This document shows, piece by piece, positions 275 to 64,000 of a stretch of 64,000 nucleotides of DNA. The stretch is from an uncultured Gammaproteobacteria bacterium (GTDB lineage: Bacteria > Patescibacteriota > Patescibacteriia > UBA1558 > S5-K13). The position numbers and the translations under genes are program-made. The stretch covers positions 12,538-76,537 of the forward strand of contig CAZAOE010000001.1 of NCBI GenBank assembly GCA_964486685.1, read 5' to 3'. Each line of letters begins with the position of its first letter. Position 1 is the first letter of the stretch. The notes under the pieces are model-generated. The model did no database searches. It was not told the origin of the DNA and saw only the letters and a program-made list of their open reading frames with translations.

Positions 275-290
275 CCTCACCCCCTCTAAT

Positions 291-329
291 CCCCCTCTCC
301 TAAAATTAGGAGAGGGGGAGGGAGTTTTT
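291..329 (+). terminator. GC-rich hairpin plus T-run (rho-independent terminator) after map
   Basis: CCCCCTCTCCT aaaatt AGGAGAGGGGG stem followed by agggagTTTTT. Confidence 0.5.
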
Positions 330-7729: not shown

Positions 7730-8521
7730 TTAGTCGTTTTTGTATTTAAAGGATAATCTTTGTTTTAAATCTTGGTCAACAAAAATATTAAATTTTTTAT
7801 TACGAAATCCCTCAGTAAAGTTTTTCGTTCCTATATTTTCTTTAATAAATTTTACTAACTCTTTCTTATATTTATCTCCTTTACCAATAATGCCAGTGGC
7901 AATTTTTAGATCGTAGTTTATTGCTCCAATAAAAAGATCAACGACTTGTAATAAATCATTACCCCTGGAATCGAATCGACAAACTCCAGCCATTGCTAAT
8001 CTATTAGCTTTTTTATTTATTTTTTCTTTTACAGAAACTTCATAATGAATATTTTTAGGTGTTGTTACGTGGTCTGCTAAAAGTATTAAAATTTCATTTG
8101 GTGAAAGAGATGATTCTGCTAGTCGAATAGAAATTTGTTCGTAAGCAATCCATGGATTATTGTTAAATTTTTTTTGAAAATAATTTCCTTGTTTATCAAT
8201 TGTATAAGAATAAAACCAAATGCTCCTGGTGTCTAAAAAAGAATCAATAGCAAATTTAGCGAAATCAATATTAAGTCTAGATAATTTATTAAATTTCATT
8301 TCATCATGAAAGTTTCTTTTATTTCTTTCATAAGTTAATTTACTATATAAATAATAAGGTTGGCTACATTTTATTAGACCAATTGTAAAAAATGGAGCAG
8401 TTTTAGGATCGAGGCTTCCACTTTCATCAAGAAAACAAAATTTTGTCCAAATTTTGTCATAGTCTTTAAGTTTGATTTCCCCCGTTTCTTTTATTTTAAT
8501 TTTGTTCTTTCTAAAAAGCAT
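7730..8521 (-). CDS. DUF3800-family protein
   Basis: N-terminal FCFLDESGSL resembles the DUF3800 signature (y.DESG). Confidence 0.45.
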   Translation of the reverse strand: MLFRKNKIKIKETGEIKLKDYDKIWTKFCFLDESGSLDPKTAPFFTIGLIKCSQPYYLYSKLTYERNKRNFHDEMKFNKLSRLNIDFAKFAIDSFLDTRSIWFYSYTIDKQGNYFQKKFNNNPWIAYEQISIRLAESSLSPNEILILLADHVTTPKNIHYEVSVKEKINKKANRLAMAGVCRFDSRGNDLLQVVDLFIGAINYDLKIATGIIGKGDKYKKELVKFIKENIGTKNFTEGFRNKKFNIFVDQDLKQRLSFKYKND

Positions 8522-8530
8522 ATTTTTATT

Positions 8531-9124
8531 TTAATCCAACCTTTTCCTATTTTCCAAAGCAGAGGAAAGAGTGATTTCATCAGTATATTCAATATCTGAA
8601 CCCATGGGAATTCCACGAGCAAGACGGGAAATGGTTATATTAGAGTTTTTAAATATATTTTTGAGATAAGTGGTCGTGGCTTCGCCCTGGATATTAGAAT
8701 TAAAGGCCAGAATTAATTCTTTGGTCTGTTCATTTTTAACTCGATTGACCAATTCTTTAATAAAAAGTTTATCAGGAGTAATTCCAGAAAGAGGATCAAT
8801 TAAACCACCAAGAATATGATAAACACCATTAAATTTTCCAGTAGATTCCATAACTTCTAAATCACTGCTATTAGCAACAATACAAATAGTATCTTTTTGA
8901 CGACTAGCATCACTACAAATAGCACATGGGTTAGTATCTGAAAAATTATTGCATAATTGGCAGACCTTTAATTCCTTAGTATCGTCGATGCTTTTTATAA
9001 AATCATTAATTTTAGATTCTGGTTTAGAAGCCAAAAAAAGAGCAAGACGCTCAGCTGTTTTGGGTCCAATGCCCGGCAGAGTCATTAATTGCTCTATTAA
9101 GTTTTTTATTATGTTTGGATACAC
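8531..9124 (-). CDS. recR: Recombination protein RecR
   Basis: LPGIGPKTAERLALFL helix-hairpin-helix, C4 zinc finger CQLCNN...CAICSD and Toprim region; classic ybaB-recR synteny. Confidence 0.9.
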   Translation of the reverse strand: MYPNIIKNLIEQLMTLPGIGPKTAERLALFLASKPESKINDFIKSIDDTKELKVCQLCNNFSDTNPCAICSDASRQKDTICIVANSSDLEVMESTGKFNGVYHILGGLIDPLSGITPDKLFIKELVNRVKNEQTKELILAFNSNIQGEATTTYLKNIFKNSNITISRLARGIPMGSDIEYTDEITLSSALENRKRLD

Positions 9125-9189
9125 TTTGTGTAAATTTTAAATTTTAAGTTATAAATTTTAAATGAAAGGAAGGATTTGTGTAAATTTTA

Positions 9190-9266
9190 AATGAAAGGAA
9201 ATATTATATTAACCCCCACCATCTCCCCCTTACTAAGGGGGAGGGAGAGGGGGTGAATTTTAAATT
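9190..9266. repeat. 77-bp exact repeat (copy 1), containing a GC-rich palindromic hairpin
   Basis: aatgaaaggaaatattatattaacccccaccatctcccccttactaagggggagggagagggggtgaattttaaatt is identical to 29869-29945; core hairpin CTCCCCCTT act AAGGGGGAG. Confidence 0.7.
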
Positions 9267-9552
9267 AAAAATTGAAATTTGGCATGGATATTTCTCCATT
9301 CTTCATTTTTTCAGCCATTATTTTTTGAATTTTTTTAGTAGCATCATTAAATAATTCCGGAAGTGTATTTTCAATTGTTGAGTTTTCCATATCTTCAGGA
9401 ATTTTTATAGAGAGAACCGTTTGATTGCCATCCATTTTTAAAACAATTCCTTTTTTTTCTACTGCTACATTTTCTTGAGATAAGGCGTTTTGCATGTTTT
9501 TGGCCTGGGTCCTTAAATCTTTAATTTGATTTAGTTTTGAGAACATATTCAT
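9265..9552 (-). CDS. ybaB: Nucleoid-associated protein YbaB/EbfC
   Basis: 95-aa protein, MNMFSKLNQIKDLRTQAKNMQNALSQE..., with YbaB-like composition, located next to recR. Confidence 0.8.
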   Translation of the reverse strand: MNMFSKLNQIKDLRTQAKNMQNALSQENVAVEKKGIVLKMDGNQTVLSIKIPEDMENSTIENTLPELFNDATKKIQKIMAEKMKNGEISMPNFNF

Positions 9553-9811
9553 CCCGTTAGATATTATTTATTAAATGTTGATAAATTTAATCCCCTTCAG
9601 TTATATTAATTAGTCCCGTTTGTAAGATATAATTTTTATCTAACGGGATTCATATACAAATGTGTTAATACTAATATACTAATAATGCTAATAATACAAA
9701 TAGATTATACTAATAATACAAATGAATTCATATGATTGGTATATTACCCGCCATAATTTTATAAAAATTAAGGCGGGATTAGCATCACTTAATTCTCGTA
9801 TCATTAGTATT

Positions 9812-11209
9812 TTATTCTTCGGGTGGTGCAATGTCAGCGTGTTTTTCTAAGCTTTTAAAGCTAACCGTTTCTTCGTCAAAAAATAATTTAATCATGCCCG
9901 TAGGACCATTACGATGTTTGGCTATGTGAATTTCAGCAATGCCCTTTTCTTCTGCGCTTAAATCTTCAAATCTGTAACTTCTATCTGCTGCTTTGCGGTA
10001 AATAAACATAACGACATCTGCGTCTTGTTCTATTGTACCAGATTCTCGTAAATGAGACAGTTTAGGAATAGCGGGTTTGCTCATTTCTACAGCTCGAGAT
10101 AATTGAGATAAAGCAATAATTGGAATATTTAATTCCCGAGCAATATTTTTGAGACCTCTAGTGATTTCAGCTACTTCTTGAACCCGAGATTCTTTATTAC
10201 TATTACTTTCCATTAATTGTAAATAATCAACTATCAATAAAGAAAGGTTATGTTCTAATTTTAAACGGCGGGCCTTGGTTCTAATTTGCATAATATTTAA
10301 ACTGGCTGAGTCATCAATAAATATTTTAGCATCAGCTAAGGTACCCATGGCATTACCAATGCGTGGGAAATCATCATGTTCAGCACTGTCAGAAAGTTTG
10401 CCAGTGCGCATTTTCCATAAAGATACTCCAGCCTCAGAGCAAAGTATTCTATCTACTAATTCTTCTTTGCTCATTTCTAAAGAAAAGAGTCCTACCACTT
10501 CTTTATTTTTAATAGCGGCATGACGGGCTATATCTAAGGCCAAAGTAGTTTTACCTACACTGGGTCGGGAGGCAATAATGATTAAATTAGAATTTTGTAG
10601 GCCAGCTAATTTATTGTCTAAATCTGTATAGCCAGTAGGAATACCTCTTAATTTGCCTTTATTTTTATGAAGTTCGTCAATTCTTTCAAAAGTTTCATTT
10701 AAAATATTGGAAATGGGAATAAAATTTTCTCTGAGGAATTTTTGCGAAATTTGAAAAAGACTTCTTTCAGATTTATCTAAAATATCATCTACGGCCTCTT
10801 TTTCATTATAAGCCATGCCAGTTATTTCGGCAGAGGCCTTGATTAATTTTCTGAGAGTAGATTTTTTTTGTACTATTTCCGCATAATGTTTAACATTGCT
10901 GGCCGTAACTACGGCATTAGTTAAACTGGCTAAATATGATTTTCCACCCACCATTTTTGATTCTTTTCTTTCTTCTAAAAGATTACTAATGGATAAAATA
11001 TCTAAGGGTTCTCTTTTATCATATAAACTTAAACAACATTCAAATATTTTTTGATGGGATTGTTTATAAAAATCCTCAGGATTAATAATATCCGCTATTT
11101 TGTTCATAGCTTCATTGTCAATCAAAATAGAGCCCAAAACATTGGCCTCGGCCTCTAAATTATGAGGGGGTATTTTATCAATAGATTGTGAGTTTTGATT
11201 ATTAACCAT
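9812..11209 (-). CDS. dnaB: Replicative DNA helicase DnaB
   Basis: N-terminal PHNLEAEANVLGSILID, Walker A GKTT, Walker B DYLQLM and the RecA-like fold signature; 465 aa. Confidence 0.95.
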   Translation of the reverse strand: MVNNQNSQSIDKIPPHNLEAEANVLGSILIDNEAMNKIADIINPEDFYKQSHQKIFECCLSLYDKREPLDILSISNLLEERKESKMVGGKSYLASLTNAVVTASNVKHYAEIVQKKSTLRKLIKASAEITGMAYNEKEAVDDILDKSERSLFQISQKFLRENFIPISNILNETFERIDELHKNKGKLRGIPTGYTDLDNKLAGLQNSNLIIIASRPSVGKTTLALDIARHAAIKNKEVVGLFSLEMSKEELVDRILCSEAGVSLWKMRTGKLSDSAEHDDFPRIGNAMGTLADAKIFIDDSASLNIMQIRTKARRLKLEHNLSLLIVDYLQLMESNSNKESRVQEVAEITRGLKNIARELNIPIIALSQLSRAVEMSKPAIPKLSHLRESGTIEQDADVVMFIYRKAADRSYRFEDLSAEEKGIAEIHIAKHRNGPTGMIKLFFDEETVSFKSLEKHADIAPPEE

Positions 11210-11400
11210 AGTATTCCCATTTTAACAGAAAAAATTTATCTTTCAAGTATTTTTATGGACAGTTTATCCACTAAGTATAAACACTTGATTTTTTATAATA
11301 TCTATGTTATATTTTTATGTATAAAAATACAACTATTTGTGTTTTTTTGTTATAATTTAGTAGTCAGCGGTTGGTAGTATTTATGTATTCAAAATGTATT

Positions 11401-11665
11401 AAAAATTAAATATAGTTAATTAAGCGCCGTTAGCTCCCCCCTTCGCCAAAGCTACGGAGGGCAGGCAGTTGGTACCCAACTTCGCTAACAAAGTATATTG
11501 TAATAATTTTATATAGATATTAAAAATTAAATATAGTTAATTAAGCGCCGTTAGCTCCCCCCTTCGCCAAAGCTACGGAGGGCAGGCAGTTGGTACCCAA
11601 CTTCGCTAACAAAGTATATTGTAATAATTTTATATAGATATTAAAAATTAAATATAGTTAATTAA
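11401..11665 (+). repeat. Tandem array of 121-bp units (2.2 copies), each carrying the tRNA-Lys promoter and first 13 nt of the tRNA
   Basis: Units start at 11401, 11522 and 11643. Each has aaaaattaaatatagttaattaaGCGCCGTTAGCTC followed by a 53-nt GC-rich insert (ccccccttcgccaaagctacggagggcaggcagttggtacccaacttcgctaac). The third unit continues into the intact tRNA. Confidence 0.8.
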
Positions 11666-11741
11666 GCGCCGTTAGCTCAGTTGGTAGAGCAGCAGCCTTT
11701 TAAGCTGATGGTCGCAGGTTCGAATCCTGCACGGCGTACCA
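11666..11741 (+). tRNA. tRNA-Lys (anticodon UUU), with encoded CCA
   Basis: GCGCCGT-TA-GCTC-AGTTGGT-AGAGC-A-GCAGC-CTTTTAA-GCTGA-TGGTC-GCAGG-TTCGAAT-CCTGC-ACGGCGT-A-CCA. Cloverleaf with perfect D and T stems; 7-nt anticodon loop C-U-UUU-A-A. Confidence 0.9.
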
Positions 11742-11743
11742 TA

Positions 11744-11815
11744 AACCACTCACTGCGTTCGGGTTTATGGTAAACCATAAATTACTCACTGCGTTCGGGT
11801 TTATGGTAAACCATA
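11744..11815 (+). repeat. Tandem 35-bp repeat (x2) with internal hairpin, directly 3' of the tRNA
   Basis: ccactcactgcgttcgggtttatggtaaaccataa appears twice; tttatggtaaaccataaa is palindromic. Confidence 0.6.
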
Positions 11816-11957
11816 ACACATTTATTTTTGTAATATATTTCTCGATTTTATTTTCTCCACTCCGGTCGAAATTTTTGGCGGGATTTTTTTTATTCCCTTT
11901 TTTAAAATTAAGAGTATAATTAATTTTATTAAAAGTTAATAATTAAAATTTAATTAG

Positions 11958-14216: not shown

Positions 14217-14430
14217 TGTTTTGTTTTAAGGTTTTAATAGTTTAATCATAGCGGATAAATAGATTTAGGTAAAATAGATTTTTTTGTTATAATGAGGTTA
14301 GTTTAGGGTTATCTGCCTACGCCAATACTTCTCCCTGCGCTAAAGCTTCTCCCTGCGCTAAAGCTTCGGGAGACAGGTTGGGAGACAGGTCGGGAGACAG
14401 GAAAGTTAAAAATAAAAAGTTTTTAAGAGT

Positions 14431-29458: not shown

Positions 29459-29620
29459 GCGATACCAATATAGCGATACCAATATACGAATTTACCCTTG
29501 AACCAGAAATCGGTTCAGGGTGAATACGAATTATACTAATATACCAATCATTAGTATTTAATTAGTATATTAGTATCACAATATTAGTATTATTAGTATA
29601 GAAAGGAAGGTAAAAATAAA

Positions 29621-29839
29621 GTGGTAGAAGTTAAACAAAAAATTAATGAATCTTTTGAAAAATTAATTAGAAGATTTACTAAAAAAATAATCCAGAGCGG
29701 TAAATTATTGCAGGCCCGAAAGGTTAGATTTCAAAACGAAAGAAAAAATAAAAGAAAATTTAAGTCCGCGGCCATTTATCGTTTAAAAGCCCAAGACCAA
29801 AGAGATTACTTGAAAAAAATTGGCAAAATAGAAGAATAA
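29621..29839 (+). CDS. rpsU: 30S ribosomal protein S21
   Basis: 72 aa, basic, S21-like FEKLIRRFTKK...KRKFKSAAIYRLKA. Confidence 0.7.
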   Translation: MVEVKQKINESFEKLIRRFTKKIIQSGKLLQARKVRFQNERKNKRKFKSAAIYRLKAQDQRDYLKKIGKIEE

Positions 29840-29868
29840 GAAATAATTTTGAATTACGAATGAAAGGA

Positions 29869-29945
29869 AATATTATATTAACCCCCACCATCTCCCCCTT
29901 ACTAAGGGGGAGGGAGAGGGGGTGAATTTTAAATTTAAAATTAAT
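29869..29945. repeat. 77-bp exact repeat (copy 2) with GC-rich hairpin
   Basis: Identical to 9190-9266; lies 30 nt after rpsU. Confidence 0.7.
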
Positions 29946-29956
29946 AATTCAAAGAA

Positions 29957-30406
29957 ATGTCTTTAAAAGAGAAAATTGAAAAAGATTGTATTCAGGCCTT
30001 AAAATTAAGAAACCAGGACGAGCTGGGAGTTTTAAGATTGTTAAAAAGTGCTATTCAGAATAAAGAAATAGAAAAAAAAGCAAAATTAAAAGATGAGGAT
30101 ATTATTAAAATTTTAATGTCTGAGATAAAAAAGAGAAAGGATAGCATTGAGCAGTTTAAAAAAGGCGAACGCAATGATTTAGTATCTAAAGAAGAAAAAG
30201 AGATTAAAATCATTGACCAATATTTGCCGGAAATGAAATCTAAGGAAGAGATAAAAAAAATTATTTGTGATATAATAAAAAGAGAGAATATAGAGAGGTC
30301 TGTAAGCAATTTTGGACAACTAATGAAATTGGCTATGCAAGAATTATCTGGTCAGGCCGAAGGAAATTTTGTTTCGCAGATTGTTAAGGAAGAATTGAAT
30401 AAATGA
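29957..30406 (+). CDS. GatB/YqeY domain protein
   Basis: ~149 aa K/E-rich helical protein with a YqeY-like N-terminus (LKEKIEKDCIQALKLRNQDELGVLRLLKSAIQN). Confidence 0.65.
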   Translation: MSLKEKIEKDCIQALKLRNQDELGVLRLLKSAIQNKEIEKKAKLKDEDIIKILMSEIKKRKDSIEQFKKGERNDLVSKEEKEIKIIDQYLPEMKSKEEIKKIICDIIKRENIERSVSNFGQLMKLAMQELSGQAEGNFVSQIVKEELNK

Positions 30407-30502: not shown

Positions 30503-32188
30503 ATGTTATTAAAAGCAAAAATAAAAAATAGTTTTAACTTTTCTAAAATAACTGTTGTCAGTTTAGTTTTAATGTCAGCGGTTATTTTTTTATTACCCAG
30601 CATTTCTCAAGCCCAAATTTTAGTTCCCCAAGTAGATAATTTAAGTACGGGCAGTATTGAAGAGATAGCTGGGACTGTTATTCAATTGGTTTTGGGCTTA
30701 TTGGGCTTAATTGCTTTAGTTATTGTTTTATATGCCGGTTTTATGTGGATGACTTCTGGAGGAAATGAAGAAAAAATATCTAAGGCCAAAAAAATCTTAA
30801 GTGCTGGAGTAATTGGACTTTTAATTATTTTGGCCTCTTATGCTATCACCAGCTTTATTTTACAAGTAGCTCAAGGAGGAGGTGGCGGTGGTGGTGGACA
30901 CGGAGATTATACGGAAGGATTGGGTGGATTTGGCGGAGGAGCATTAGGCGGAGGGGTAATTGAATATCATTATCCGGCTCGAGATGCTACTAATATTCCG
31001 CGTAATACTTTAATTATGATTAGTTTTAAAGTTAGGGTTGCTACTAGTAGTGTAATAGCAGAATCTTTTACTGATAATCCGGGGCTTGGGCTTTGTAATA
31101 ATTATACAGAAAACAACACTAATGGTAATGAATGTGGAATTTTAAGTAGCGATATAGAGATAATTGATTATGGTTCTGAAAATATTCCCTTGGATCCAGA
31201 AGATGTAGTTGCTGTTTTAACTGCAGATGGAAAAAATATTTTACTTAGGCCCATAGAGTATTTAGGAAACGGAGAAAATTCTACTGATACAATTGTGTAT
31301 TTGGGAGCAGGAATGGTAACTGCTGATGGTAAGGACTTATTTGGCGGTTTAGAAAATGGATATGCTTGGCAATTTGAAGTCAGTACTTTTTTAGATCTTA
31401 CGCCTCCAACTGTTAGTTTTGTCTGGCCAGGGCAAGACCAGATAGTGGCACGTAATGCTATTATTCAAGTTAATTTTTCGGAACCCATAAATATTTTAAG
31501 CGTAGATGGAAATATTATTGTTACAAATTTACCAGATGAAATTTTAGCAGGAGAATTAAAAATTAGTAATCAGTATAAAACAATAGAATTTTTAGCTGCT
31601 GGAGACTGCGGAGGAGCAAGGGTTAATTCCTGCGGTGAAGAAATATTTTGTTTACCAGCTTTGGCAAATATTGAAACTTTAGTTGAAGCCGGAGAAGCCG
31701 ACGATCCTTTAAGTGGAATTAGTGATGCGGCTGGTAATTTATTGGCAGAAGATTATATTTGGGATTTTAATACTACTAATAATGTTTATACTATTTCTCC
31801 AATAATAGAATCTACTGGTCCAGTTAATAATGAAGAAAATGTTCAGCTGAATCCAAATATTTGGGCTTTATTTGATTTAACAGATGTCAATATTTCGCCT
31901 AGTTCTTTAAATACAGATAGTTTTTATATTTATGATGCTGATAGTTGTGTTGATTTAGGTCAAGACGATCCAGATTTAGAAGCTGGGCACAAAGAAAATA
32001 TTGCTGGAGATAATTGTTTCCCAGCTTATTCCGTTTACATGAGCGATGACAATAAGAAGTGTAATATTCAAATATATAATGCCTTAGAAAATAATATTCT
32101 TTATTATCCGCGAATTACTTCTGAAATTAAGGATTCTTATGGAAATTGTTTTAATCCAGCTGAGGGTCCAGGCGGGAGCGAGCGGTAA
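30503..32188 (+). CDS. Surface protein with VirB2/TrbC-like pilin-type N-terminal anchor domain, poly-Gly linker and Ig-like (Big) extracellular domains
   Basis: Signal peptide, then two hydrophobic helices separated by a short charged loop (VIQLVLGLLGLIALVIVLYAGFMWM - TSGGNEEKISKAKKIL - SAGVIGLLIILASYAITSFIL), which is VirB2/TrbC topology. GGGGGGGG linker follows. TPPTVSFVWPGQDQIV...VNFSEPIN is an SbsA/Big_5-like Ig domain. Confidence 0.55.
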   Translation: MLLKAKIKNSFNFSKITVVSLVLMSAVIFLLPSISQAQILVPQVDNLSTGSIEEIAGTVIQLVLGLLGLIALVIVLYAGFMWMTSGGNEEKISKAKKILSAGVIGLLIILASYAITSFILQVAQGGGGGGGGHGDYTEGLGGFGGGALGGGVIEYHYPARDATNIPRNTLIMISFKVRVATSSVIAESFTDNPGLGLCNNYTENNTNGNECGILSSDIEIIDYGSENIPLDPEDVVAVLTADGKNILLRPIEYLGNGENSTDTIVYLGAGMVTADGKDLFGGLENGYAWQFEVSTFLDLTPPTVSFVWPGQDQIVARNAIIQVNFSEPINILSVDGNIIVTNLPDEILAGELKISNQYKTIEFLAAGDCGGARVNSCGEEIFCLPALANIETLVEAGEADDPLSGISDAAGNLLAEDYIWDFNTTNNVYTISPIIESTGPVNNEENVQLNPNIWALFDLTDVNISPSSLNTDSFYIYDADSCVDLGQDDPDLEAGHKENIAGDNCFPAYSVYMSDDNKKCNIQIYNALENNILYYPRITSEIKDSYGNCFNPAEGPGGSER

Positions 32189-32204
32189 TAGTTTAATTGT
32201 TAAA

Positions 32205-32301
32205 CCCCTCACCTTTTGATTAAGAATATATTATTTTATTTTCTAATATTTTTTAAAAATAATAATGCTTAATATAATTTATTTTAGAAAAGGTGATGGG
32301 G
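32205..32301. mobile_element. MITE-like non-coding element (97 bp) with 13-bp terminal inverted repeats and a 10-bp flanking direct repeat
   Basis: TIRs cccctcacctttt ... aaaaggtgatgggg. Flanks aattgttaaa (32195-32204) and aattgttaaa (32304-32313). A second copy in inverse orientation lies at 60322-60419. Confidence 0.55.
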
Positions 32302-32340
32302 TAAATTGTTAAAATTAAGAGTAACTTGTAACTAATTATC

Positions 32341-35300
32341 ATGCTTAAGAAAAGAAAAAATTTATTTTTAATCTTTATACTATTTATAGTAATAGGTTTT
32401 GTATTACCAAATATTTCATCTGCTCAAATTTTAGTTCCACAAGTAGATAATCTTAGTACAGGTAGCATTGAAGAGATAGCTGGGACTGTTATTCAATTGG
32501 TTTTGGGCTTATTGGGCTTAATTGCTTTAGTTATTGTTTTATATGCCGGTTTTATGTGGATGACTTCTGGAGGAAATGAAGAAAAAATATCTAAGGCCAA
32601 AAAAATCTTAAGTGCCGGAGTAATTGGTCTGATTATTATTTTGGCCTCTTATGCTATAACCAGCTTTATTTTACAAGCAGCCCAAGGAGGAGGTGGCGGT
32701 GGAGGCGGTGGAGGTCAAGGATGTACTCCTAATGAATGTACGGGTTGTTATCGGTGTGATCTTGATGGTAATTCTCATTATGACGAGACTTGTCCTACCT
32801 GTGGTTCTGGTGGGGAAACATATAATTTTAGTGTAATTACTAATAGTCCTCAAGGAGAAAATATTTCTTTGTGCAGTTTAATTCAAGTTAAATTTAATAA
32901 TATTGTTGATGAAACTACAGTTAATTCTCAAAATTTTGGTTTATATGACTGTGGAGCCAATTCTTGTGCTGGCAATTTAATCAACAATTTAACGCCAGAT
33001 GGACAGTTTATAATAGAAGAAGATATAATTCAGTTTATTTTAGGAGAGGATTATGAGCAGAAGCATTATTATGCAGTTAATATCATACATGATGGGATTG
33101 CAGATGAAGACGGAGAGGCCTTGTTAGTAGATTATTATTGGGAGTTTAAAACTGGGAATGAAACAGATACAGAGCCACCTACTGTTATTTCAGTATTTCC
33201 TAAAGATGATCAAGAAGATGTTTGTTTAACTTCATATATTACCGCCGAATTTTCAGAAGATATGGATATGCTTTCTTTAAGAAATGCCTCGTCCTTTTAT
33301 TTATATGAAGACATTGACACTCTATCAGATATAGATTTTTTTCATCAGGTTTATAATGACTCCTTAATTTTATATCCTAACTCTAACTATGAAGCAGTTG
33401 AAGATTACTTCCCTTTATTAAATGGCAGTATTATTAAAGATACTTGTGGTAATTATTTAGATGGTGATGGTGATGGCACTCATCAAGATTCAGATATTGA
33501 TAATTATCCTTCAGAAGGTCCTAGTGAAGAATGGAATTTTATTACCGGAGATAATTTATATTGTACGCCAGAAATTACTGGAGTTGAAAATAATCAAACC
33601 TATTATGACGCCACAGAGAATTTAATTATTTCTGGTCATTATTTAGGGAATAATCCAGTTTTAATTTTTGATAATTCCATAGTCGTAAACCAAACAAGTA
33701 ATTTATGTATGGGAAATGAATATTGGTATGATGGCGCTTGTGTTATTTGGGCCTGGACAGAAGAAGAAATAAAAGTAGCTATACCAGTGACTGGGGGCGA
33801 TAATAACGGAGTTAGGGCCGGAGAAAATTTAGTGGAAGTGCAAACTGATGAAGGCAATGTTAGCGCTAATTTTGATTTATTAAGTCCGCGTATTAATGCT
33901 TTATATCCAGACCAAGGTGGAGTTGGACAATTTATCAGTATTTGGGGAATAAATTTTAAAGAAGATGAAAACATTAATTTAAGTGCTTCCGAGGTTTATT
34001 TTCGTTTTAATCAAGATGAATACATAGAAGCAGATTTACCTTGTGGCCAAGATGCCTGGGAAGATGAACAAATTATTATTTCTGCTCCTAATAATTTGAA
34101 TATAAATAATGTTTATGCTGTGCAAATTAAAAAAGTTTATGATGACGGTACAGAGCGCTGGAGTAATTTAGCGGATTTTTATTTTAATGATGAAGAAGCT
34201 GGACCAGGTCTATGCTCTATTGATAAGGATGAGCTTTTTTTTGAAGACGAATTTAATTTAAATGGAATTAAATTAGGGGACGATATCTTTTATAATAGAG
34301 AAGTAATTTTAGGCGATGATTATAGTTCCATACAAGCTGATGTCTTAGAGTGGACCGGAAACGATGGTGATGGACACAATACAGATGTTGAGGCCATAAC
34401 TCCCTTAATGGGTTCGGCTACAGGAGTAGGCGTTAGAGTAATGGTAGAGGAAACAGCAGGTGAACAAAGATTTAGTAATTATTTAAATGTAGAGATATTG
34501 GCAGATGAATCAACAAATTTTTATATAAATTATACTTCTCCAACCTCAACTCCAATAGGGGGCTATGTGACGATTTATGGTTCTGGGTTTGGAAATAGCC
34601 AAGATGATAAGATGGTTAAGTTTAATATAGGCGGAGATGATTGGACAGATGGAGATTTTGATTTTCCAGATGAATGTTCTACGGCTTTTTGGAGTGATGA
34701 ACAAGTAATTGTTAAAGTACCGGAAACATTTAATGGTTTTGGGTTTCCATTTTCTTCAAAAATAAAAATTATAGATTCAGCTAATTATTTAGAAACTAAT
34801 GCAGTAAATTTTGAAGTTAATAATGAAGGACTTGCTCCTTGTATTTGTAGTGTAAACCCTGAATTTGGAACAAAAGAAAATGAAATTGAAATTGCTGGTG
34901 AGTATTTTGAAGATCCCGATGATGTAGATAACTTTTACTTTAACACAATTTTTGATAACAGCGGAAATTTTATATCTGGAGATTATGCGGATTTTATTAT
35001 AGATTCAGATGAGTTAATGTTTGTAACAGTAACATCAACGCAAACTGGTTTAATTTCAGCTCGCAATATTAATGGCTATGGCAATACTTGGAATTTTGAA
35101 TATATTGAAGCAGGAGCAGACATAACAGGTGTTTGGGATTTTTATGGCTGGAATTTTACTACTTGTGCAGATTGTGAAAATCCAAGAGTGAGTAGAAAAA
35201 TATGTAATTCTAATAACGGTATATCTTTTCCTTCGCCAGAACCAGGAAGTACAGATGTACCACAAGACACTAAACAGGTTTATGCGGCTTTTGAATATCC

Positions 35301-38300: not shown

Positions 38301-41157
38301 AGGAACCAGTGTTTATGCCCAAGAAAATAACAATGATATTATTGGTTTGAGAATATATCAGAACTTAAAACATTTATCACCTTTAGATTGGTATTATGAG
38401 TCAGCGCCAGTAATTAAGGGAAATCCTCAACCAATAAAAGTTGGTTCTTATAATGGTTTGCAAGATGGCCGGACAGTTTATGTGAATGTGGGTGAATTAG
38501 GTAATGATGGTAATTTATATACTAATATGTTATTAATATCTCATTCTCAGGATGTCAGTCCAGCTACTATTAATATATTTAATCAATTAATTGATAATTG
38601 GGATTTTAATATTAATATAGACGACTTAGACCAAAGAAATGAATTGGTAGATGATGTACAAAGATGGCAAGATATAAGAAGTATTGAGAAAAAATTAAAT
38701 GATTATGCTGATGGAAATAAATTTTGTGCTTATGTAACTGATCCATTAGGGGCTTCCTGTCCATCAGGTTATCATCATTTTGATATAAATGGTGATGGAG
38801 TGATTGATGATGAAGAATGTTATGATGTTTCTTCAAATGTAACTTGTAGATGGGATTCTGATTGTGAAAAGCATGAAATGGGTTTTCAGAAATGTGTGGG
38901 TGTATATCCAGAATTAAATGATGGTAGTTTTTTACAAGGTATTTCAACATCTAAATGGCCTTCTTGGGCATCTACTTTAGGTAATGATTTGGGTTCTGTT
39001 TTGCCCCATGATCCTATAAATGAATTTAATAGTTGTCCGACAGATTATGATGAACAAACTTGCTGGCATTCTGTTAATGAAGAGTTTTATTGTGCTTTTG
39101 GTTCACAAATTTACTATTATAGGGCTGATGGTAAAGAAGATTTAGATAATAGAGCTTTGGGTTTTGATTTATTTTCTGAATTTAATTCTCAAGAAAATTG
39201 GAATGGCCCATCATCATCATTAACAAATCATGCTTTAGATTTATATAATACTATTAAAATTGATAATCAAGATGTTTGTGATGATGGAGAAATTGGTATC
39301 TTATGTGGTAATGGAAGTTTGGATACTGGCGAACAATGCGATTATAGTAGTGCTAATAACACTTTAACATTATGTTCTGGTGGTTATAATGAAAGAACAG
39401 TTGGCTGTGATAGTAATTGTCAATGGCCTGATTATGTAGAATCCTATCAATGTTTAAGCTGTGGTGATGGATTGTTTAGCCCTCTTTATGAAGAATGTGA
39501 AATCGGATGGGGCGATATGATTTGTGCAGATGGCTGGAATCCACAACCCGTAAATTGTGTTGCTTGTGAATGGGACTCAGCAGTGGATCCTTGTGAATAT
39601 TGTGGTGATAATATTTGTCAAAATGGTACTAATAGTACTAATGATTATGGGGAAAATTATTCTACATGCATACAAGATTGTCATTGTCAGATTGGAGCTG
39701 ATATTGGTATTTGTCAACCAGCGTATGGTGAAAATAGTGAAGTCACTAGTCTGGGATATTGCGATGATTGTTCTTGTGGAGATGGAGTAGTTGATTCTAC
39801 AGAGGATTGTGATGATATGATTAGTATTGGTGAAGTTTGTGAAATTGATGATTATGCCGGGCATATAGATTGTATAGGTTGTGCTTGGGATGGTTGTTTA
39901 GCAGACGGAGAATGTGGGGATAATGTTGTTGATGGAAATGAACTTTGTGAAATTGGAGAAATAACTATTTGTAAGGAAGAGACAACTGGATATTTTGGTG
40001 AGAAGGCATGTCTAGCGGGTTGTTTAGCTTGGGGAAATTGTGTGGCTACAGAATGGTGTGGAGATGATATTATAAATGGCCCTGAAGGCCTTGAAGAATG
40101 TGATGATGGAATGCATTGTGAGAATGGAGATTCTTGTTTTGACAATTCTGTATGTAATGGTATTGGTGATGGACTTTGCAAGCCTCGGAATAATGATGGC
40201 TGTGATGCAAATTGCAAGATTGAACCTGTTTGCGGTGATGGTGTTAAAGAAGGAGCAGAACAATGTGATGATGGAAATACTAATGATTGTGATGGATGTA
40301 AAGGAGATTGTTTAAGAGTTGATAATGTTTGTGGTGATACAAATCTAGAATGCGAGGAAGTTTGCGATGATGGAAATACAAAAACTGAACGATGTGGAGA
40401 TGGAGAAAAAAATGATGGTGATTTTTGTAATGCTAATTGTACAGAGGGGTTTACTTTAAATGAACAATGTGATGATGAAGTTATGGGCCCAGATGATGAT
40501 ACTTATCATATTGAAGATTCAGGCGATGATGATGGAGCTTGTGTAATTGATTATATGCATTCATATTATTCATGTAAGAACAACGTATGTGGAGATGGAT
40601 ATTTAGATTTAAGCTCTGAAGAATGTGATTTTGGAGAGTATCCTGCTCCTAATGATGGATGTAATGACAGTAGTTGCGAGATTGAACCTGTTTGTGGAGA
40701 TGGCGTTCCTGGGCTAGGCGAACAATGTGATGATGGAGATGATCAAGATACAGTTTATACACTTGATCCTAATAATAATGATGGAGTTTGTGTAATTGAT
40801 TACACAAATTGGAATATTTCTTGTAAAATCAATATATGTGGTGATGGATATTTAAATCAAGTTTTTGAGAAGTGTGATGATGGAAATAGAATTTTTGGTG
40901 ATGGCTGTGATGCAGATTGTGATATTGAGCCCTGTAATGATTTAAATATAAATAATTGGGGCGCTTTTTTCTATGCGTCCAATAGTAGTGTTTGTGAGAA
41001 TTTACAAAATTGTCATTGTGTGTGGTGGGGTGAATGTTGTTGTGATTGTTTAAATAGTGGTGGGTGTAATCCCGCATTTTCTTGTAGTTGTACTGGTATT
41101 AATTGTGAGCCACCAACTTGGACTCCTAATCAATATTGTGTTTGTACTGAAAATTAA
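32341..41157 (+). CDS. Giant (2938 aa) surface protein: pilin-like N-terminal anchor, poly-Gly linker, multiple Ig-like domains and a C-terminal array of Cys-rich CGDG...CDDGN repeats
   Basis: The N-terminal ~120 aa are near-identical to the 30503 protein. Big-like domains (PPTVISVFPKDDQEDV...). Many C-terminal repeats of the 'Myxococcus cysteine-rich repeat' type (CGDGVKEGAEQCDDGNTNDCDGC, CGDGVPGLGEQCDDGD, CGDGYLNQVFEKCDDGN ...). The 8.8-kb ORF is uninterrupted. Confidence 0.7.
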   Translation: MLKKRKNLFLIFILFIVIGFVLPNISSAQILVPQVDNLSTGSIEEIAGTVIQLVLGLLGLIALVIVLYAGFMWMTSGGNEEKISKAKKILSAGVIGLIIILASYAITSFILQAAQGGGGGGGGGGQGCTPNECTGCYRCDLDGNSHYDETCPTCGSGGETYNFSVITNSPQGENISLCSLIQVKFNNIVDETTVNSQNFGLYDCGANSCAGNLINNLTPDGQFIIEEDIIQFILGEDYEQKHYYAVNIIHDGIADEDGEALLVDYYWEFKTGNETDTEPPTVISVFPKDDQEDVCLTSYITAEFSEDMDMLSLRNASSFYLYEDIDTLSDIDFFHQVYNDSLILYPNSNYEAVEDYFPLLNGSIIKDTCGNYLDGDGDGTHQDSDIDNYPSEGPSEEWNFITGDNLYCTPEITGVENNQTYYDATENLIISGHYLGNNPVLIFDNSIVVNQTSNLCMGNEYWYDGACVIWAWTEEEIKVAIPVTGGDNNGVRAGENLVEVQTDEGNVSANFDLLSPRINALYPDQGGVGQFISIWGINFKEDENINLSASEVYFRFNQDEYIEADLPCGQDAWEDEQIIISAPNNLNINNVYAVQIKKVYDDGTERWSNLADFYFNDEEAGPGLCSIDKDELFFEDEFNLNGIKLGDDIFYNREVILGDDYSSIQADVLEWTGNDGDGHNTDVEAITPLMGSATGVGVRVMVEETAGEQRFSNYLNVEILADESTNFYINYTSPTSTPIGGYVTIYGSGFGNSQDDKMVKFNIGGDDWTDGDFDFPDECSTAFWSDEQVIVKVPETFNGFGFPFSSKIKIIDSANYLETNAVNFEVNNEGLAPCICSVNPEFGTKENEIEIAGEYFEDPDDVDNFYFNTIFDNSGNFISGDYADFIIDSDELMFVTVTSTQTGLISARNINGYGNTWNFEYIEAGADITGVWDFYGWNFTTCADCENPRVSRKICNSNNGISFPSPEPGSTDVPQDTKQVYAAFEYPSSMALQMDTNTLITNNINVYKCASGENPGDCNARVSIDNITATPIFLLFKTVNSLEADYWYKIELNTDITDNEGSSLIPNNSDNNAYEWYFHINKEGGQCEPEQLSIVPENYSLAYLTPKSILYKGFLIDDGCYICNDSGYNYVWDKDDPNGLVNFSSRSGVSSEISVHLNQNYKIGDLQISATSTDAGGNGQELFDKTNLYITANCALFNDDWSSCIDNNAHQGFACCWDDISSQCVNDGSPICMRPFVKEIACQPTITLGSPSPVASSTDVVSNALIYMEFAKSGTSTVDMDLNTYTDNLEIYNCTDVNGSFADDICGNNLYNNLSFNYDAIQSSNSVVLYNHNNFILNTWYKLIATENIQDKYGSSLQPKEWHFKVGAGLCDPTNLEVSPSNWTLEIDESKKYTTYCYDEQCNVCLNNYTYEWEVANPSIAELNPDPGTNSSATSTGKAIGFTQITATTTINGEEISDFGDLTVTASIDNCSNYGSITPCNNSGSCCWDGSDCLTGVGNPACDDEESCNDYGDETACNDSHGSDHPSLNCCWALDGYCTSNLSVCEIFYNCSQFKEALDCEHSINNCCWGEDGECYGDGSPMCSNFKVIENYPEDASTEVCPNTLIRAIFNKVLDADSLAGNVNLYVEEGVGNWSSVTTTLNLYNNFAGQAVLKIIPEFLLDKNADYKVELTDGADGIKSTYGNVLNCSNGKCSWIFATANTVCELNYIEIIDPIDKYYLFTQPNEDKNFIAEGRDINGNTIVSMAGYDWSWYWESLDEDLVDLGGPYSDNVTATAENANGNTIVRVSALPIPSELRCSQIVNQIQCEGDSCCWFNGACMADFTECQNTCSVLTTEDDCLINDNCIWQDNMCHFENKWDYDNKDGYKSGLVYPDEAEVELFMCENIWPNVGSFEDDEYHFRLKYCRDGGLGYLATTQAEGLITTNGDGNELLREYIFKYNNPVALELEDMKDEKTILAQVGFLELFDSRLSWKLLGRMFGQFIDLFKGTSVYAQENNNDIIGLRIYQNLKHLSPLDWYYESAPVIKGNPQPIKVGSYNGLQDGRTVYVNVGELGNDGNLYTNMLLISHSQDVSPATINIFNQLIDNWDFNINIDDLDQRNELVDDVQRWQDIRSIEKKLNDYADGNKFCAYVTDPLGASCPSGYHHFDINGDGVIDDEECYDVSSNVTCRWDSDCEKHEMGFQKCVGVYPELNDGSFLQGISTSKWPSWASTLGNDLGSVLPHDPINEFNSCPTDYDEQTCWHSVNEEFYCAFGSQIYYYRADGKEDLDNRALGFDLFSEFNSQENWNGPSSSLTNHALDLYNTIKIDNQDVCDDGEIGILCGNGSLDTGEQCDYSSANNTLTLCSGGYNERTVGCDSNCQWPDYVESYQCLSCGDGLFSPLYEECEIGWGDMICADGWNPQPVNCVACEWDSAVDPCEYCGDNICQNGTNSTNDYGENYSTCIQDCHCQIGADIGICQPAYGENSEVTSLGYCDDCSCGDGVVDSTEDCDDMISIGEVCEIDDYAGHIDCIGCAWDGCLADGECGDNVVDGNELCEIGEITICKEETTGYFGEKACLAGCLAWGNCVATEWCGDDIINGPEGLEECDDGMHCENGDSCFDNSVCNGIGDGLCKPRNNDGCDANCKIEPVCGDGVKEGAEQCDDGNTNDCDGCKGDCLRVDNVCGDTNLECEEVCDDGNTKTERCGDGEKNDGDFCNANCTEGFTLNEQCDDEVMGPDDDTYHIEDSGDDDGACVIDYMHSYYSCKNNVCGDGYLDLSSEECDFGEYPAPNDGCNDSSCEIEPVCGDGVPGLGEQCDDGDDQDTVYTLDPNNNDGVCVIDYTNWNISCKINICGDGYLNQVFEKCDDGNRIFGDGCDADCDIEPCNDLNINNWGAFFYASNSSVCENLQNCHCVWWGECCCDCLNSGGCNPAFSCSCTGINCEPPTWTPNQYCVCTEN

Positions 41158-50433: not shown

Positions 50434-50965
50434 AATTTTTTGATTATTAATTAAATAAAAAACTATTAGTTATTGGGAAATTAAAAAAGGTTTCCCAAAC
50501 CAGCTGACAAGTCCTTGCGAAAATGCCACTACACCCTTTCGAGCATAGACCTATCCTACAAGTACTGGTTGGAAAACCATTTTTATGTAGGATAGGATTT
50601 TTAACCATACCTTATGAAAACATAGGGGTTAGGTCAATCTAATCGTTATTTTAATATTAACTCAAAAAATTTTAAAAGTAAAATAAATATATGCCCCTTT
50701 TTCCTAACTAGGAGGAGAAGGGGGTTGGTTTACTAAAAGCGAAATTTATGCGAAAATATATATATAATAAGTTTTTAATTTTCAATTTTTTAATTATCAA
50801 TCCTAAAGACGTTAGGCACCTTTCAGATATTAAACGTTTTTCCAAATTTTATTATTTACTTAGGTTGTATAATTTAAAAAAAGATTAGAGTTATAATTAA
50901 GGACTGGGGGACAGAGAGGTTAATTGGTAATTTGAAATTGTAAATTTTTATTTTTAAATTTAGAT

Positions 50966-54032: not shown

Positions 54033-54075
54033 TATTTTGGTAGAAATAAAATTATTAAGTTATTTTAATAATATG

Positions 54076-54238
54076 GGATTATCAATTACCAATTATCAAT
54101 TTTCAATTCTCATTTAATTTTCAATAATTAAATTTACAATAGTTTTTATGAAATAAATAGCTTAGCAAAAATTGATTATTGTAATATTGGTTATTAAATG
54201 AAAATTTAAAATTTCAAATTGAAAATTAAATAATATAT
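54076..54238. repeat. ~170-bp intergenic element, copy B
   Basis: Homologous to 787-963; ends at the glyS ATG. Confidence 0.6.
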
Positions 54239-56215: not shown

Positions 56216-57559
56216 ATGTCTAAGATAAAAACAATTTATGCTTGTTCTAAATGTGGTGCTCAGACCGCAAAATGGGAAGGGCGTTGTCCAGAATGTGGAG
56301 CTTGGGGTAGTTTAGAAAAAGAAAGCATTGCAGATTCAGACAAAAAAGACAAAGAAAGTCAACTTAAAGATTTAAAAGTTGATTTTATTGATTTAGATAA
56401 GCTTAAGAAAACCGATACCCAAAGATTAAAAACTGGCTTTGATTCTTTTAATGTTGCGATTAATGGTGGAATTGTCCGGGCTTCTTTAGTTTTAATTGGT
56501 GGTAATCCCGGAATTGGTAAATCAACTTTAATTTCACAAATAGTTTCTAATAATTTTAAAACTTTATATGTTTCTGGAGAAGAAACTGCTTCTTCAGTTA
56601 AATCTCGAATAGATAGATTAGGAGCTAAGGTTGGAGATTTAAAGTTTTTAGCAGAAAATAATTTAGAGAAAATATTAGCCGGAGCCATGAAAGCTAAACC
56701 TGATTTATTAATTATTGATTCTATTCAAACCATGTATACTTCCGAAATTGATTCAGATCCCGGAGGTGTTTCTCAAGTGCGGGCTTGTACAGTGAAATTA
56801 ATGGAGATTGCTCGGAAATTAGACATGGCAGTTTTAATAGCCAGTCACGTTAATAAAGCTGGAGATTTAGCTGGCCCAAAGGCCTTAGAGCATTTAGTTG
56901 ATTGTGTTATTTCTCTAGAGGGCGATAGGCTCAATAGATATAGAATGTTAAGGGTTATTAAAAATCGTTATGGAGCAACAGATAATTCCGAGGTTTTGGA
57001 AATGACCAGCAAGGGTTTTAAAAAAGTTTTAAATCCATCGAACATTTATCTTTCTAATACTAGTGTGGATAAAGGAACCGTTATTACTTCAATTGTTGAT
57101 GGAAATCAAGTTTTAATGTTAGAATTACAGGCCTTGGTTAATAAAACAAATTTTGGTTATCCAAAAAGAACTACTTCTGGTTTTGACCAAAAGCGCTTAG
57201 AATTATTATTAGCGGTTTTATCTAAACAAGCCAGTTTAAAATTAGGAGCTTATGATGTGTATATTAATTTAACTGGTGGTTTTAAAGTCAAAGACCGTTC
57301 TTTAGATTTAGCAGTTTGTTTAGCGATTATGTCGGCTTATCATGATAAAGTAGTTAAGGAGAGTACTATTGCTTTTGGAGAGGTTGGTTTAAGTGGCGAG
57401 GTTCGTTCTATACCAAAAACCAAAGAAAGAATTAAAGAAGCAATTGCCTTAGGATTTAAAAATATTATTATTCCTAAATTCGACAAGAAGGTTGATATTA
57501 AAGGAGTTAATTTAATTGAAGTTGAAAAAATTAAGGATTTGGAAAAATATTTGGGATAG
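56216..57559 (+). CDS. radA: DNA repair protein RadA/Sms
   Basis: C4 zinc finger CSKCGAQTAKWEGRCPECGAWGS, RecA-like Walker A GGNPGIGKSTL, KNRYG motif and a Lon-protease-like C-terminal domain. Confidence 0.9.
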   Translation: MSKIKTIYACSKCGAQTAKWEGRCPECGAWGSLEKESIADSDKKDKESQLKDLKVDFIDLDKLKKTDTQRLKTGFDSFNVAINGGIVRASLVLIGGNPGIGKSTLISQIVSNNFKTLYVSGEETASSVKSRIDRLGAKVGDLKFLAENNLEKILAGAMKAKPDLLIIDSIQTMYTSEIDSDPGGVSQVRACTVKLMEIARKLDMAVLIASHVNKAGDLAGPKALEHLVDCVISLEGDRLNRYRMLRVIKNRYGATDNSEVLEMTSKGFKKVLNPSNIYLSNTSVDKGTVITSIVDGNQVLMLELQALVNKTNFGYPKRTTSGFDQKRLELLLAVLSKQASLKLGAYDVYINLTGGFKVKDRSLDLAVCLAIMSAYHDKVVKESTIAFGEVGLSGEVRSIPKTKERIKEAIALGFKNIIIPKFDKKVDIKGVNLIEVEKIKDLEKYLG

Positions 57560-57624
57560 GAATAACGAATTAAGAATTAAGAACTAAGAATTAAAAATTA
57601 AGGATAAAATTAAAATTACTAAAA

Positions 57625-60280: not shown

Positions 60281-60321
60281 AACACAAGAAGATAAAAACA
60301 CTCAAACATTAAAGCAATAAA

Positions 60322-60419
60322 CCCCTCACCTTTTTAAAATAAATTATGCTATGAATTATTATTCTTACTTAATATATTTAAAAATGAAACATTTTATTCT
60401 TAATCAAAAGGTGATGGGG
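60322..60419. mobile_element. MITE-like element (98 bp), inverse-orientation copy of 32205-32301
   Basis: TIRs cccctcacctttt ... aaaaggtgatgggg. The interior is ~70% identical to the reverse complement of the other copy. Flanked by aaagcaa direct repeats and by longer ~35-bp direct repeats (60282-60320 / 60437-60470). Confidence 0.55.
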
Positions 60420-60541
60420 TAAAGCAAGAAATCAATAAAACACAAGAATATTAAAACATTAAAGCATAAAAACAATATAACAATTTACCCCATCAACCCA
60501 GCTTAGCTGGGTGAGGGATTTAATAATTAAACAATTATCCA

Positions 60542-63947: not shown

Positions 63948-64000
63948 GTATTAAGTATTATGTATTAAGAACGTAAAGTAGCAAAGCTACTAACGTTCTT

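Follow-up and report, generated by a model that had tools for sequence, protein, structure and literature searches.

Two identical hairpin repeats at the ybaB/recR and rpsU/yqeY junctions of a patescibacterial genome, best read as copies of a small mobile element

Why does the same hairpin, identical over 77 nucleotides (nt), stand directly behind two small genes of one genome? The question is raised by the window, by which we mean the whole 64-kb stretch of contig CAZAOE010000001.1 that was analysed (all positions are those of the window, whose G+C content is 30%). One copy of the repeat follows ybaB, the neighbour of recR, and the other follows an rpsU-like gene, the neighbour of yqeY. The homologues of the window's RecR bear the names Patescibacteria or Parcubacteria. 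A first-pass annotation had combined the repeat with octamer arrays upstream of the same two genes and had proposed a portable expression cassette or a conserved regulatory design, in which the GC-rich core of the repeat would terminate transcription in either orientation. We find that the repeat is best read as a mobile element akin to repetitive extragenic palindromic (REP) sequences and Rickettsia palindromic elements (RPE), not as an expression cassette. We put the probability that the 77/84-nt repeat is a small, selfish palindromic element, two copies of which recently inserted at the ybaB/recR and rpsU/yqeY junctions, at roughly 0.7.

Exact searches and alignment confirm the repeat itself. 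Its 47-nt core, AACCCCCACCATCTCCCCCTTACTAAGGGGGAGGGAGAGGGGGTGAA, occurs exactly twice in the window, both times on the plus strand (Table 1), whereas shuffled sequences predict zero occurrences. Alignment and blastn both extend the identical run to 77 nt, at 9190-9266 (copy A) and 29859-29935 (copy B); the first-pass annotation had placed copy A correctly and copy B 10 nt too far downstream, at 29869-29945. If one mismatch is allowed the match grows to 84 nt, and across 98 nt the two copies are still 93% identical. Copy A, between ybaB and recR, shares 2 nt with the ybaB stop codon (9265-9267). Copy B begins 19 nt past the stop codon of the rpsU-like open reading frame (ORF), which occupies the customary position beside yqeY, and ends 14 nt short of yqeY. 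Each copy contains a 9-10 bp stem, CTCCCCCTT/AAGGGGGAG, and the predicted fold energies are -30.3 kcal/mol on the plus strand (z = -2.5) and -31.2 kcal/mol on the minus strand (z = -3.2). The core of about 44 nt is built from a pyrimidine-only 5' arm, a purine-only 3' arm, a TTA-N-TAA loop and the flanking C5/G5 outer runs, ACCCCC on the 5' side and GAGGGGGT on the 3' side, both of which are present in the window core. A third nested hairpin of the same class, with another sequence, lies in the map-ruvX spacer, and two more related hairpins are found in the same genome about 9.6 kb past the end of the window (L215:21088 and L215:21172).

The syntenic loci of relatives, which were reached through homologues of YbaB, RecR and YqeY, bear directly on the history of the two copies. 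In L123 and L128, whose RecR is 83-87% identical to that of the window, the ybaB stop codon abuts the recR start codon (...AATTTC TAA ATG TATCCAAA...), and in L126 a tRNA gene is found at this junction instead. The window has a lineage-specific insertion of 140 nt exactly between the two codons. Besides copy A and an 18-nt direct repeat, this insertion contains, in its AT-rich part, a second partial copy of the 5' end of the unit (AATGAAAGGAA at 9161) and promoter-like hexamers on the minus strand that face recR, such matches being only about twice as frequent as expected from shuffled sequence. At the second site, the closest relative (L129/L130, YqeY 85% identical) has an rpsU-yqeY spacer of 82 nt that consists of ATTGCTAA-type repeats and has no hairpin, and in more distant relatives the spacer measures 37-51 nt. 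Moreover, map and ruvX overlap in L123, whereas the third hairpin fills the spacer between them in the window. Both window copies are lineage-specific, identical and recent insertions. Because the nearest relatives have neither copy at the orthologous junctions, both represent recent insertions and not the conserved regulatory design that had been suggested.

The octamer arrays that were to form the 5' half of the cassette are real. Units of ATACNAAT/ATTNGTAT make up just two clusters in the whole window, one upstream of ybaB and one upstream of rpsU. In both spacers a block of ATACNAAT units comes right after the dnaB or hisS stop codon, a short GC hairpin lies inside, and a complementary ATTNGTAT block runs up to ybaB or rpsU, in the latter case reaching the rpsU Shine-Dalgarno sequence. 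Each array makes up the 3' half of a long inverted repeat with imperfect arms, (ATACNAAT)n…(ATTNGTAT)n, and for the folds of the two spacers z is -4.9 and -4.8. Homology between the spacers covers about 62 nt, among them an exact 15-mer, TAATATACCAATCAT. Since the closest relative, L129, keeps the TATTAGTA array before rpsU but lacks a hairpin behind the gene, the arrays predate the hairpin and do not depend on it. Distant relatives have array-free spacers of 21-41 nt, and relatives at the ybaB locus have neither array nor hairpin. The TATTAGTA arrays are a separate, older spacer feature, the arms of long AT-rich inverted repeats, and they belong to a habit of this genome, whose spacers are filled genome-wide with repeats of period 7 to period 9. 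What stands of the portable expression cassette is its portability, in the form of the insertions; as an expression cassette it is not supported, 5' arrays and 3' hairpin being independent. The proposal that the TATTAGTA units are reiterated -10-like boxes was rejected: ATTAGTA is only mildly enriched, with 49 window-wide occurrences compared to 35±6 expected. A promoter role of the arrays is neither supported nor excluded. As a separate observation, CCCGTTAGAT in the ybaB leader (9553-9645, minus strand) is predicted to pair with nearby CAAACGGG or with ATCTAACGGG, which abuts the ATG, and a start-site-sequestering structure is possible; this leader is missing in relatives, whose dnaB-ybaB spacers measure 21-107 nt.

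The hairpin core is the sole part of the window unit that is common to other phyla. Its inner 21-mer, CTCCCCCTTACTAAGGGGGAG, was found in more than 119 stretches of species-representative genomes, which include Nomura-, Falkow- and Kuenenbacteria, cyanobacteria, Aliivibrio, Marinomonas, Nitrospirae, Bacteroidales, Ignavibacteria and Planctomycetes, although a palindrome has low effective complexity and the count of 21-mers alone is weak proof of a family. The flanks, which lie outside the search pattern, carry the 5' C-run in 42% and the 3' G-run (GAGGGGGT) in 74% of the copies, compared to only 8% and 4% for the reverse arrangement. Several genomes hold many copies; some variants have a small hairpin in addition, or a second one built in like manner, and two-hairpin forms with short spacers are found as well. 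Outside this genome the likeness to the window unit is limited to the hairpin of about 44 nt, the AT-rich flanks being genome-specific. The outer flanks pair over 4.2 nt within one copy and over 4.8 nt against the flanks of other copies; since own flanks pair no better than foreign ones, the outer runs are treated as conserved motifs and not as a proven helix. The exact 41-nt hairpin had no match in the metagenome contig collection, and the hairpin search gave one match only in the viral sequence collection.

The hairpin class is not only widespread but also tolerant of coding contexts. Many of the matches fall within long ORFs, and at least 18 Pfam-verified housekeeping genes carry a copy between or inside domains. 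The in-frame hosts comprise LepA (two genomes, same loop), RNase HI (two genomes, same site), MiaA, an RluD-like pseudouridine synthase, CysS, YchF, NifU, KsgA, NusA, ComEC, a UvrD-like helicase, the CCA-adding enzyme, two GT1 glycosyltransferases, AsmA and RecA. Two of the three hairpin frames are open, and the in-frame copies read LPLTKGE/SPLLRGR or, on the other strand, LPLSKGE/SPLVRGR. The same protein loop holds the hairpin in different genomes, in L081 and L105 for RNase HI and in L018 and L093 for LepA, and the two RNase HI inserts differ solely in the central loop base (SPLLRGR to SPLVRGR). These shared loops indicate either old inherited insertions or the repeated use of permissive loops.

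Clustering of the ORFs within 3 kb of the hairpin matches revealed a recurrent protein of about 117-126 amino acids (aa) in different phyla, which is DUF559 (PF04480; NCBIfam NF007294, YcjD equivalog). The closest solved structure is 3hrl, an "endonuclease-like protein", and weak PADLOC matches are to models of a methyl-directed restriction enzyme and of homing endonucleases. DUF559 has been grouped with Vsr and a group I intron homing endonuclease in one PD-(D/E)XK clade (PMC3424549 Table 1). By tblastn the gene, in some cases frameshifted or partial, was detected in 14 of the 119 hairpin-selected loci, mostly flanked by hairpins on both sides and sometimes on one. An independent sample consisted of 80 DUF559 loci from metagenome contigs that were chosen by peptide patterns only. 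Here the hairpins counted had a loop of 3-9 nt and a mismatch-free stem of 7 bp or more, its 5' arm C-rich and made of pyrimidines only and its 3' arm made of purines only, a definition that both window copies fit. Such a hairpin lies no more than 150 nt upstream of the DUF559 gene in 56 of 71 loci (mostly at -33 to -57) and no more than 170 nt downstream in 50 of 73, compared to a background of 18 hairpins in 127 kb (0.14 per kb) at distances of at least 300 nt. After de-duplication at 90% protein identity, 56 of 62 DUF559 clusters still have at least one hairpin. The hairpins beside DUF559 genes have 44 distinct arm sequences, in which C/T differences are accompanied by matching G/A changes. 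Both flanking hairpins carry the same arm in 20 of 36 loci, against an expectation of 4.0 and a maximum of 10 in 1000 permutations. The hairpin class is specifically associated with DUF559 genes, as matched flanks.

Two further results connect the window copies, and solitary hairpins in general, to this arrangement. The identical hairpin of the window copies, CCTCCCCCTTACTAAGGGGGAGG, flanks the DUF559 gene of L134 on both sides. Moreover, a single junction, that of metG and tatD in Nomurabacteria, is occupied by a solitary nested hairpin in L009 and by hairpin-DUF559-hairpin in L006, L023, L104, L134 and L136. The genes next to DUF559 cassettes are diverse (80 families among 123 ORFs) and the loci come from different organisms; the diversity of neighbours is weak evidence of mobility.

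An analogous arrangement is present in Escherichia coli K-12, where nested hairpins of the same architecture are found just downstream of the DUF559 gene ycjD. The clearest of them, CCCCTCGCCCCTCTGGGGAGAGGGTTAGGGTGAGGGG, between ycjD and fabI, is a repeat dispersed over a median of 16 places in each E. coli genome; all 5426 E. coli genomes have it, with hardly any copies outside the chromosomes. This repeat is probably BoxC, which Bergler et al. reportedly discovered beside envM/fabI in 1992. BoxC is a GC-rich dispersed repeat of 56 bp (range 51-59 bp) with 33 copies in K-12 (PMC5172473 Table 1). The length of the ycjD-side repeat is consistent with BoxC and its architecture is that of the hairpins beside the DUF559 genes in L084 and L092, but in the sequence of its stem it differs from the window element. 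In the ycjD-fabI region of K-12 (L216:6185-6420) the last 45 nt or so of ycjD are duplicated downstream of a degenerate hairpin and are followed by a complete nested hairpin, which points to the insertion of a hairpin into the 3' end of ycjD or to its recombination there.

How could such an element work? Its active part would be the nested hairpin of about 44 nt that defines the multi-phylum family, whose members elsewhere take the form of solitary intergenic hairpins, of in-frame insertions in housekeeping genes and of matched pairs around a DUF559 gene of about 120 aa. We infer that hairpin-DUF559-hairpin is the autonomous form. Solitary hairpins, both window copies included, would then be either copies mobilised in trans or solo remnants whose DUF559 gene was lost through recombination between the flanking hairpins, by analogy to REP sequences and REP doublets forming hairpins (REPIN) with their REP-associated tyrosine transposase (RAYT). 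The putative nuclease may act on the hairpin, or on its cruciform or triplex-prone form. At their present sites the window copies are probably neutral or mildly polar. A stem-loop of -30 kcal/mol in a polycistronic mRNA may protect the 3' end upstream of it or make some transcripts terminate, the insertion at site A (that of copy A) would have broken the translational coupling of ybaB and recR, and the AT-rich segment co-inserted there may supply a promoter for recR.

Several points weigh against mobility as the explanation of the window copies. Only two identical copies and three related hairpins are present in about 84 kb of this genome, and no DUF559 gene was found in these 84 kb, the search having covered the window, L214, L215 and the loci of the relatives; with so few copies and no such gene, mobilisation in this organism is only putative. 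Neither copy has a visible target-site duplication, the 18-nt repeat TTTGTGTAAATTTTAAAT at site A being one-sided. The identical stretch takes in 22 + 17 nt of AT-rich flank, whereas elsewhere the unit ends at the hairpin, so that gene conversion or segmental duplication may have made the copy. Beyond the conserved C/G runs, no covariation is seen in the outer arms. Both sites lie after small, probably highly expressed genes, and selection for an RNA-level role is possible. Finally, the association between DUF559 and the hairpin is statistical and says nothing on which partner acts on which.

The flank identity is what a one-off segmental copy would leave behind, in which gene conversion or illegitimate recombination took place between AT-rich spacers that carried the hairpin by chance, and no dedicated mobility machinery was involved. 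Such an event would fit the run of identity into genome-specific AT-rich flanks, the presence of two copies only in the window and the lack of a target-site duplication, and other spacer pairs of this genome do share sequence (e.g., 787-963 with 54033-54238). It does not account, however, for a core whose family spans phyla, is multi-copy in several genomes, inserts in frame and has a specific partner gene, nor for the gain of hairpins of this class at three different junctions of the window. We consider a one-off copy unlikely.

The same low probability applies to a regulatory explanation, namely that the hairpin is a bidirectional intrinsic terminator or an mRNA-stabilising structure, kept identical by selection as part of a regulatory design that serves small genes with high expression. 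In its favour, the GC-rich stem is stable in either orientation, each copy follows a small gene within an operon-like pair, a TTTT begins 3 nt beyond the stem in the plus orientation, and intergenic family copies are commoner between convergent (16) than between divergent (5) gene pairs. However, of the features of an intrinsic terminator only the GC-rich stem-loop is present. The tails, GAATTTTAAATT on the plus strand and TTAATATAATATTT on the minus strand, have no adjoining U-run (0-2 nt after the stem), the promoter/terminator scan called no terminator at copy A or copy B, and ordinary terminators with hairpin and T-run exist elsewhere in this genome. Relative to transcription the two copies are oppositely oriented, and the claim that the GC core terminates in either orientation is weak. 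Moreover, the hairpin is missing at the orthologous junctions of all relatives examined (L123, L126, L128, L129, L131 and L133), the 5' arrays remain where it is missing, and family members lie in frame within genes, where termination would be lethal.

Least probable by far is a product of the unit itself, either a peptide from the 21-codon ORF MKGNIILTPTISPLLRGRERG (9191-9256 and 29860-29925), which spans 66 of the 77 identical bases, or a small hairpin RNA from the promoter-like TTGAAT-16-TATTAT just upstream at site B (that of copy B): no suitably spaced Shine-Dalgarno sequence precedes the ORF, which runs against the operon at site A and along with it at site B, and which is expected from a hairpin of which two in three frames are open by construction, while the -35 region is not common to site A and Rfam searches at gathering and permissive E-value thresholds gave no credible family, their sub-threshold matches being only to microRNA, small nucleolar RNA and CRISPR-repeat models far below the gathering scores. 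Both the ORF and a private promoter for a hairpin RNA were rejected.

Mobility of a small selfish palindrome is the explanation that we retain, and it has consequences beyond this genome. Identical intergenic hairpins should be read with caution as designed regulatory parts; here they are insertions that split the ybaB-recR and rpsU-yqeY pairs. For the widespread DUF559 proteins, including E. coli YcjD, the association provides a concrete and testable role, the structure 3hrl having been solved without known function. It also offers a possible origin for GC-rich palindromes that are annotated as spurious "PLTKGE/SPLLRGR" peptides, and for unexplained insertions in LepA, RecA, NusA, RNase H and other proteins; Patescibacteria and other metagenome-assembled genomes commonly show these. 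If the DUF559 link is causal, it would be a second partnership of the REP/RAYT kind, on a different nuclease fold, and amenable to study in E. coli or Aliivibrio. A broader proposal, which we advance tentatively and do not yet favour, is that a pan-bacterial class of mobile elements has gone unrecognised, made up of stand-alone DUF559 (YcjD-type, Vsr-like) endonucleases and nested hairpins with pyrimidine/purine arms. Its autonomous unit would be hairpin-nuclease-hairpin, its solo or non-autonomous hairpins would occupy gene junctions and at times essential genes, in frame, and BoxC and ycjD would be its E. coli representatives. If so, the window copies would be hairpins of this class caught soon after insertion. 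Neither the hairpin family nor its link to DUF559 was found described in the open-access literature, of which our coverage is incomplete.

Table 1. Positions of the repeat units, their hairpins and the adjoining genes and spacer features in the window.
Feature	Position	Strand	Remarks
Copy A of the repeat unit (77 nt exact; 84 nt with 1 mismatch)	9190-9273	+	antisense to ybaB/recR transcription
Nested hairpin core of copy A	9211-9257	+	AACCCCCACC-AT-CTCCCCCTTA-C-TAAGGGGGAG-GGA-GAGGGGGTGAA
Copy B of the repeat unit, between rpsU and yqeY	29859-29942	+	sense orientation
Nested hairpin core of copy B	29880-29926	+	
Lineage-specific 140-nt insertion, exactly between ybaB stop and recR start codons	9125-9264	-	relatives TAA-ATG, no spacer
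AT-rich part of the insertion at site A	9125-9192	+	18-nt exact direct repeat TTTGTGTAAATTTTAAAT at 9125-9142 and 9175-9192
ybaB	9265-9552	-	clear Pfam match (YbaB)
recR	8531-9124	-	clear Pfam match; start GTG here, ATG in relatives
rpsU-like ORF (divergent bS21)	29621-29839	+	weak S21 Pfam match, E 0.054, full profile length
yqeY	29957-30406	+	clear Pfam match
Third nested hairpin with pyrimidine/purine arms, same class, other sequence	275-324	+	map-ruvX spacer
Block inverted repeat, dnaB-ybaB spacer	9654-9817	-	gene strand: ATACNAAT units, dnaB hairpin, 7 ATTNGTAT ("TATTAGTA") units
Block inverted repeat, hisS-rpsU spacer	29462-29606	+	6 ATACNAAT units around GC hairpin, then 5 ATTAGTAT units

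The window contains other repeats, RNAs and genes of note. A 121-nt unit is repeated 2.3 times with 100% identity within 11397-11816; each unit starts with the first 13 nt of tRNA-Lys (GCGCCGTTAGCTC), followed by a GC-rich segment, and the last one leads into the intact tRNA-Lys(UUU) gene (11666-11741), after which a 36-nt hairpin unit is repeated 2.2 times (11738-11816). GC-rich repeats in AT-rich spacers are also found at 14328-14401, where CTTCTCCCTGCGCTAAAG (2.2 times) is followed by the partly complementary TCGGGAGACAGG (three times), and a related GCTAAAGCTTCGG...GACAGG/GGCAGG stands beside the tRNA repeats (11420-11470), in L215:21205-21320 and adjoining the DUF559 gene in L157. The spacers at 787-963 and 54033-54238, upstream of unrelated genes that start at 964 and 54239, share about 170 nt composed of CAATTAC/ATTATCA heptamer arrays and then TTGGTTATTAAATGAAAATTTnAAATTTCAAATTGAAAATTAAA (94% identical), and form another homologous pair of upstream modules. 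A second dispersed repeat, at 32200-32310 and 60318-60425 in opposite orientation, has 53-nt arms that are 81% complementary, each copy being a long-loop inverted repeat, AAACCCCTCACCTTTT...(about 70 nt, AT-rich)...AAAAGGTGATGGGGTAAA. A 100-nt repeat, 82% identical, at 57485-57584 and 63873-63972 lies over the 3' ends of two ORFs (56216-57559 and the region of about 62805-63779) and also covers the GAATTAA/TAAGTAT heptamer arrays that follow. In coding sequence, 30586-30885 and 32397-32696 are a 300-nt duplication with 92% identity of the N-terminal parts of adjacent genes that resemble pilins of type IV secretion systems (561 and 2938 aa), the larger of which has many internal Cys-rich repeats (40084-40920). 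The Rfam LOOT RNA (RF03000) is present at full length on the minus strand at 50506-50635, with 72 bits (gathering score 46.4); the genes on either side of its 532-nt spacer are divergent. Finally, a DUF3800 gene (7730-8521, minus strand) lies directly 3' of recR and is not at this position in L123 and L126, and L129 has another DUF3800 gene within an island resembling restriction-modification and defence islands that adjoins lepB-hisS.

Known systems resemble parts of what is described here. Elhai et al. in 2008 and Mazel et al. in 1990 reportedly dealt with cyanobacterial short tandemly repeated repetitive (STRR) heptamer arrays and small dispersed repeats; spacers filled with tandem units of period 7 to period 9, in which tiny hairpin repeats are embedded, are a feature shared with the window. 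The window differs from them in phylum and unit sequences, and its TATTAGTA arrays are arms of inverted repeats. Like a Rho-independent terminator, the hairpin is a stable GC-rich stem-loop downstream of a gene; unlike one, it has no adjoining U-tract and is also found inside ORFs, in either orientation.

The likeness to RPE (PMC1779305, PMC1458961, PMC10969869) lies in palindromes that occur in spacers and, in frame, in protein-coding genes, where they add a short peptide and do not destroy the host protein; the in-frame likeness holds for the family, the two window copies being intergenic. RPE are 100-150 bp long, are found in Rickettsiales only, have an unrelated sequence and have no known associated nuclease, whereas the hairpins described here measure about 45-55 bp (core about 44 nt) and have hosts among Patescibacteria, Cyanobacteria, Gammaproteobacteria and others. 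DUF559 belongs to the same PD-(D/E)XK clade as Vsr and the homing endonucleases of the I-Bth0305I type (PMC3424549 Table 1). Unlike Vsr-like homing endonucleases it is not connected to an intron or intein, and the stand-alone protein is a putative endonuclease.

REP/REPIN sequences and their RAYT transposases (PMC3116915, PMC3479197, PMC3733652) resemble the family in organisation: short, GC-rich, imperfect palindromes, mostly intergenic and often at 3' ends, which come as singlets and doublets, whose effect on mRNA stability or termination is thought to be secondary, and which flank one small nuclease gene with cognate copies. The flanked gene, however, encodes a Vsr-like PD-(D/E)XK protein, DUF559 (PF04480), and not an HUH/Y1 transposase. 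REP elements carry a conserved GTAG or CGTC tag at one end (PMC3733652), and neither motif is present at the ends of the 47-nt window core. Moreover, the arms are strictly pyrimidine on the 5' and purine on the 3' side, in-frame copies are tolerated and the copy number in this organism is low; the family is made up of dispersed palindromes, and with at least 18 copies inside genes its likeness to the mostly extragenic REP is uncertain on this point. Finally, compared to miniature inverted-repeat transposable elements (MITE), the arms of the hairpin are the inverted repeats and no direct repeat brackets either window copy; like a MITE, the hairpin is derivable from a gene-carrying parent by internal deletion, as the solitary hairpin and the hairpin-DUF559-hairpin at the metG/tatD junction and the two-hairpin forms with short spacers illustrate.

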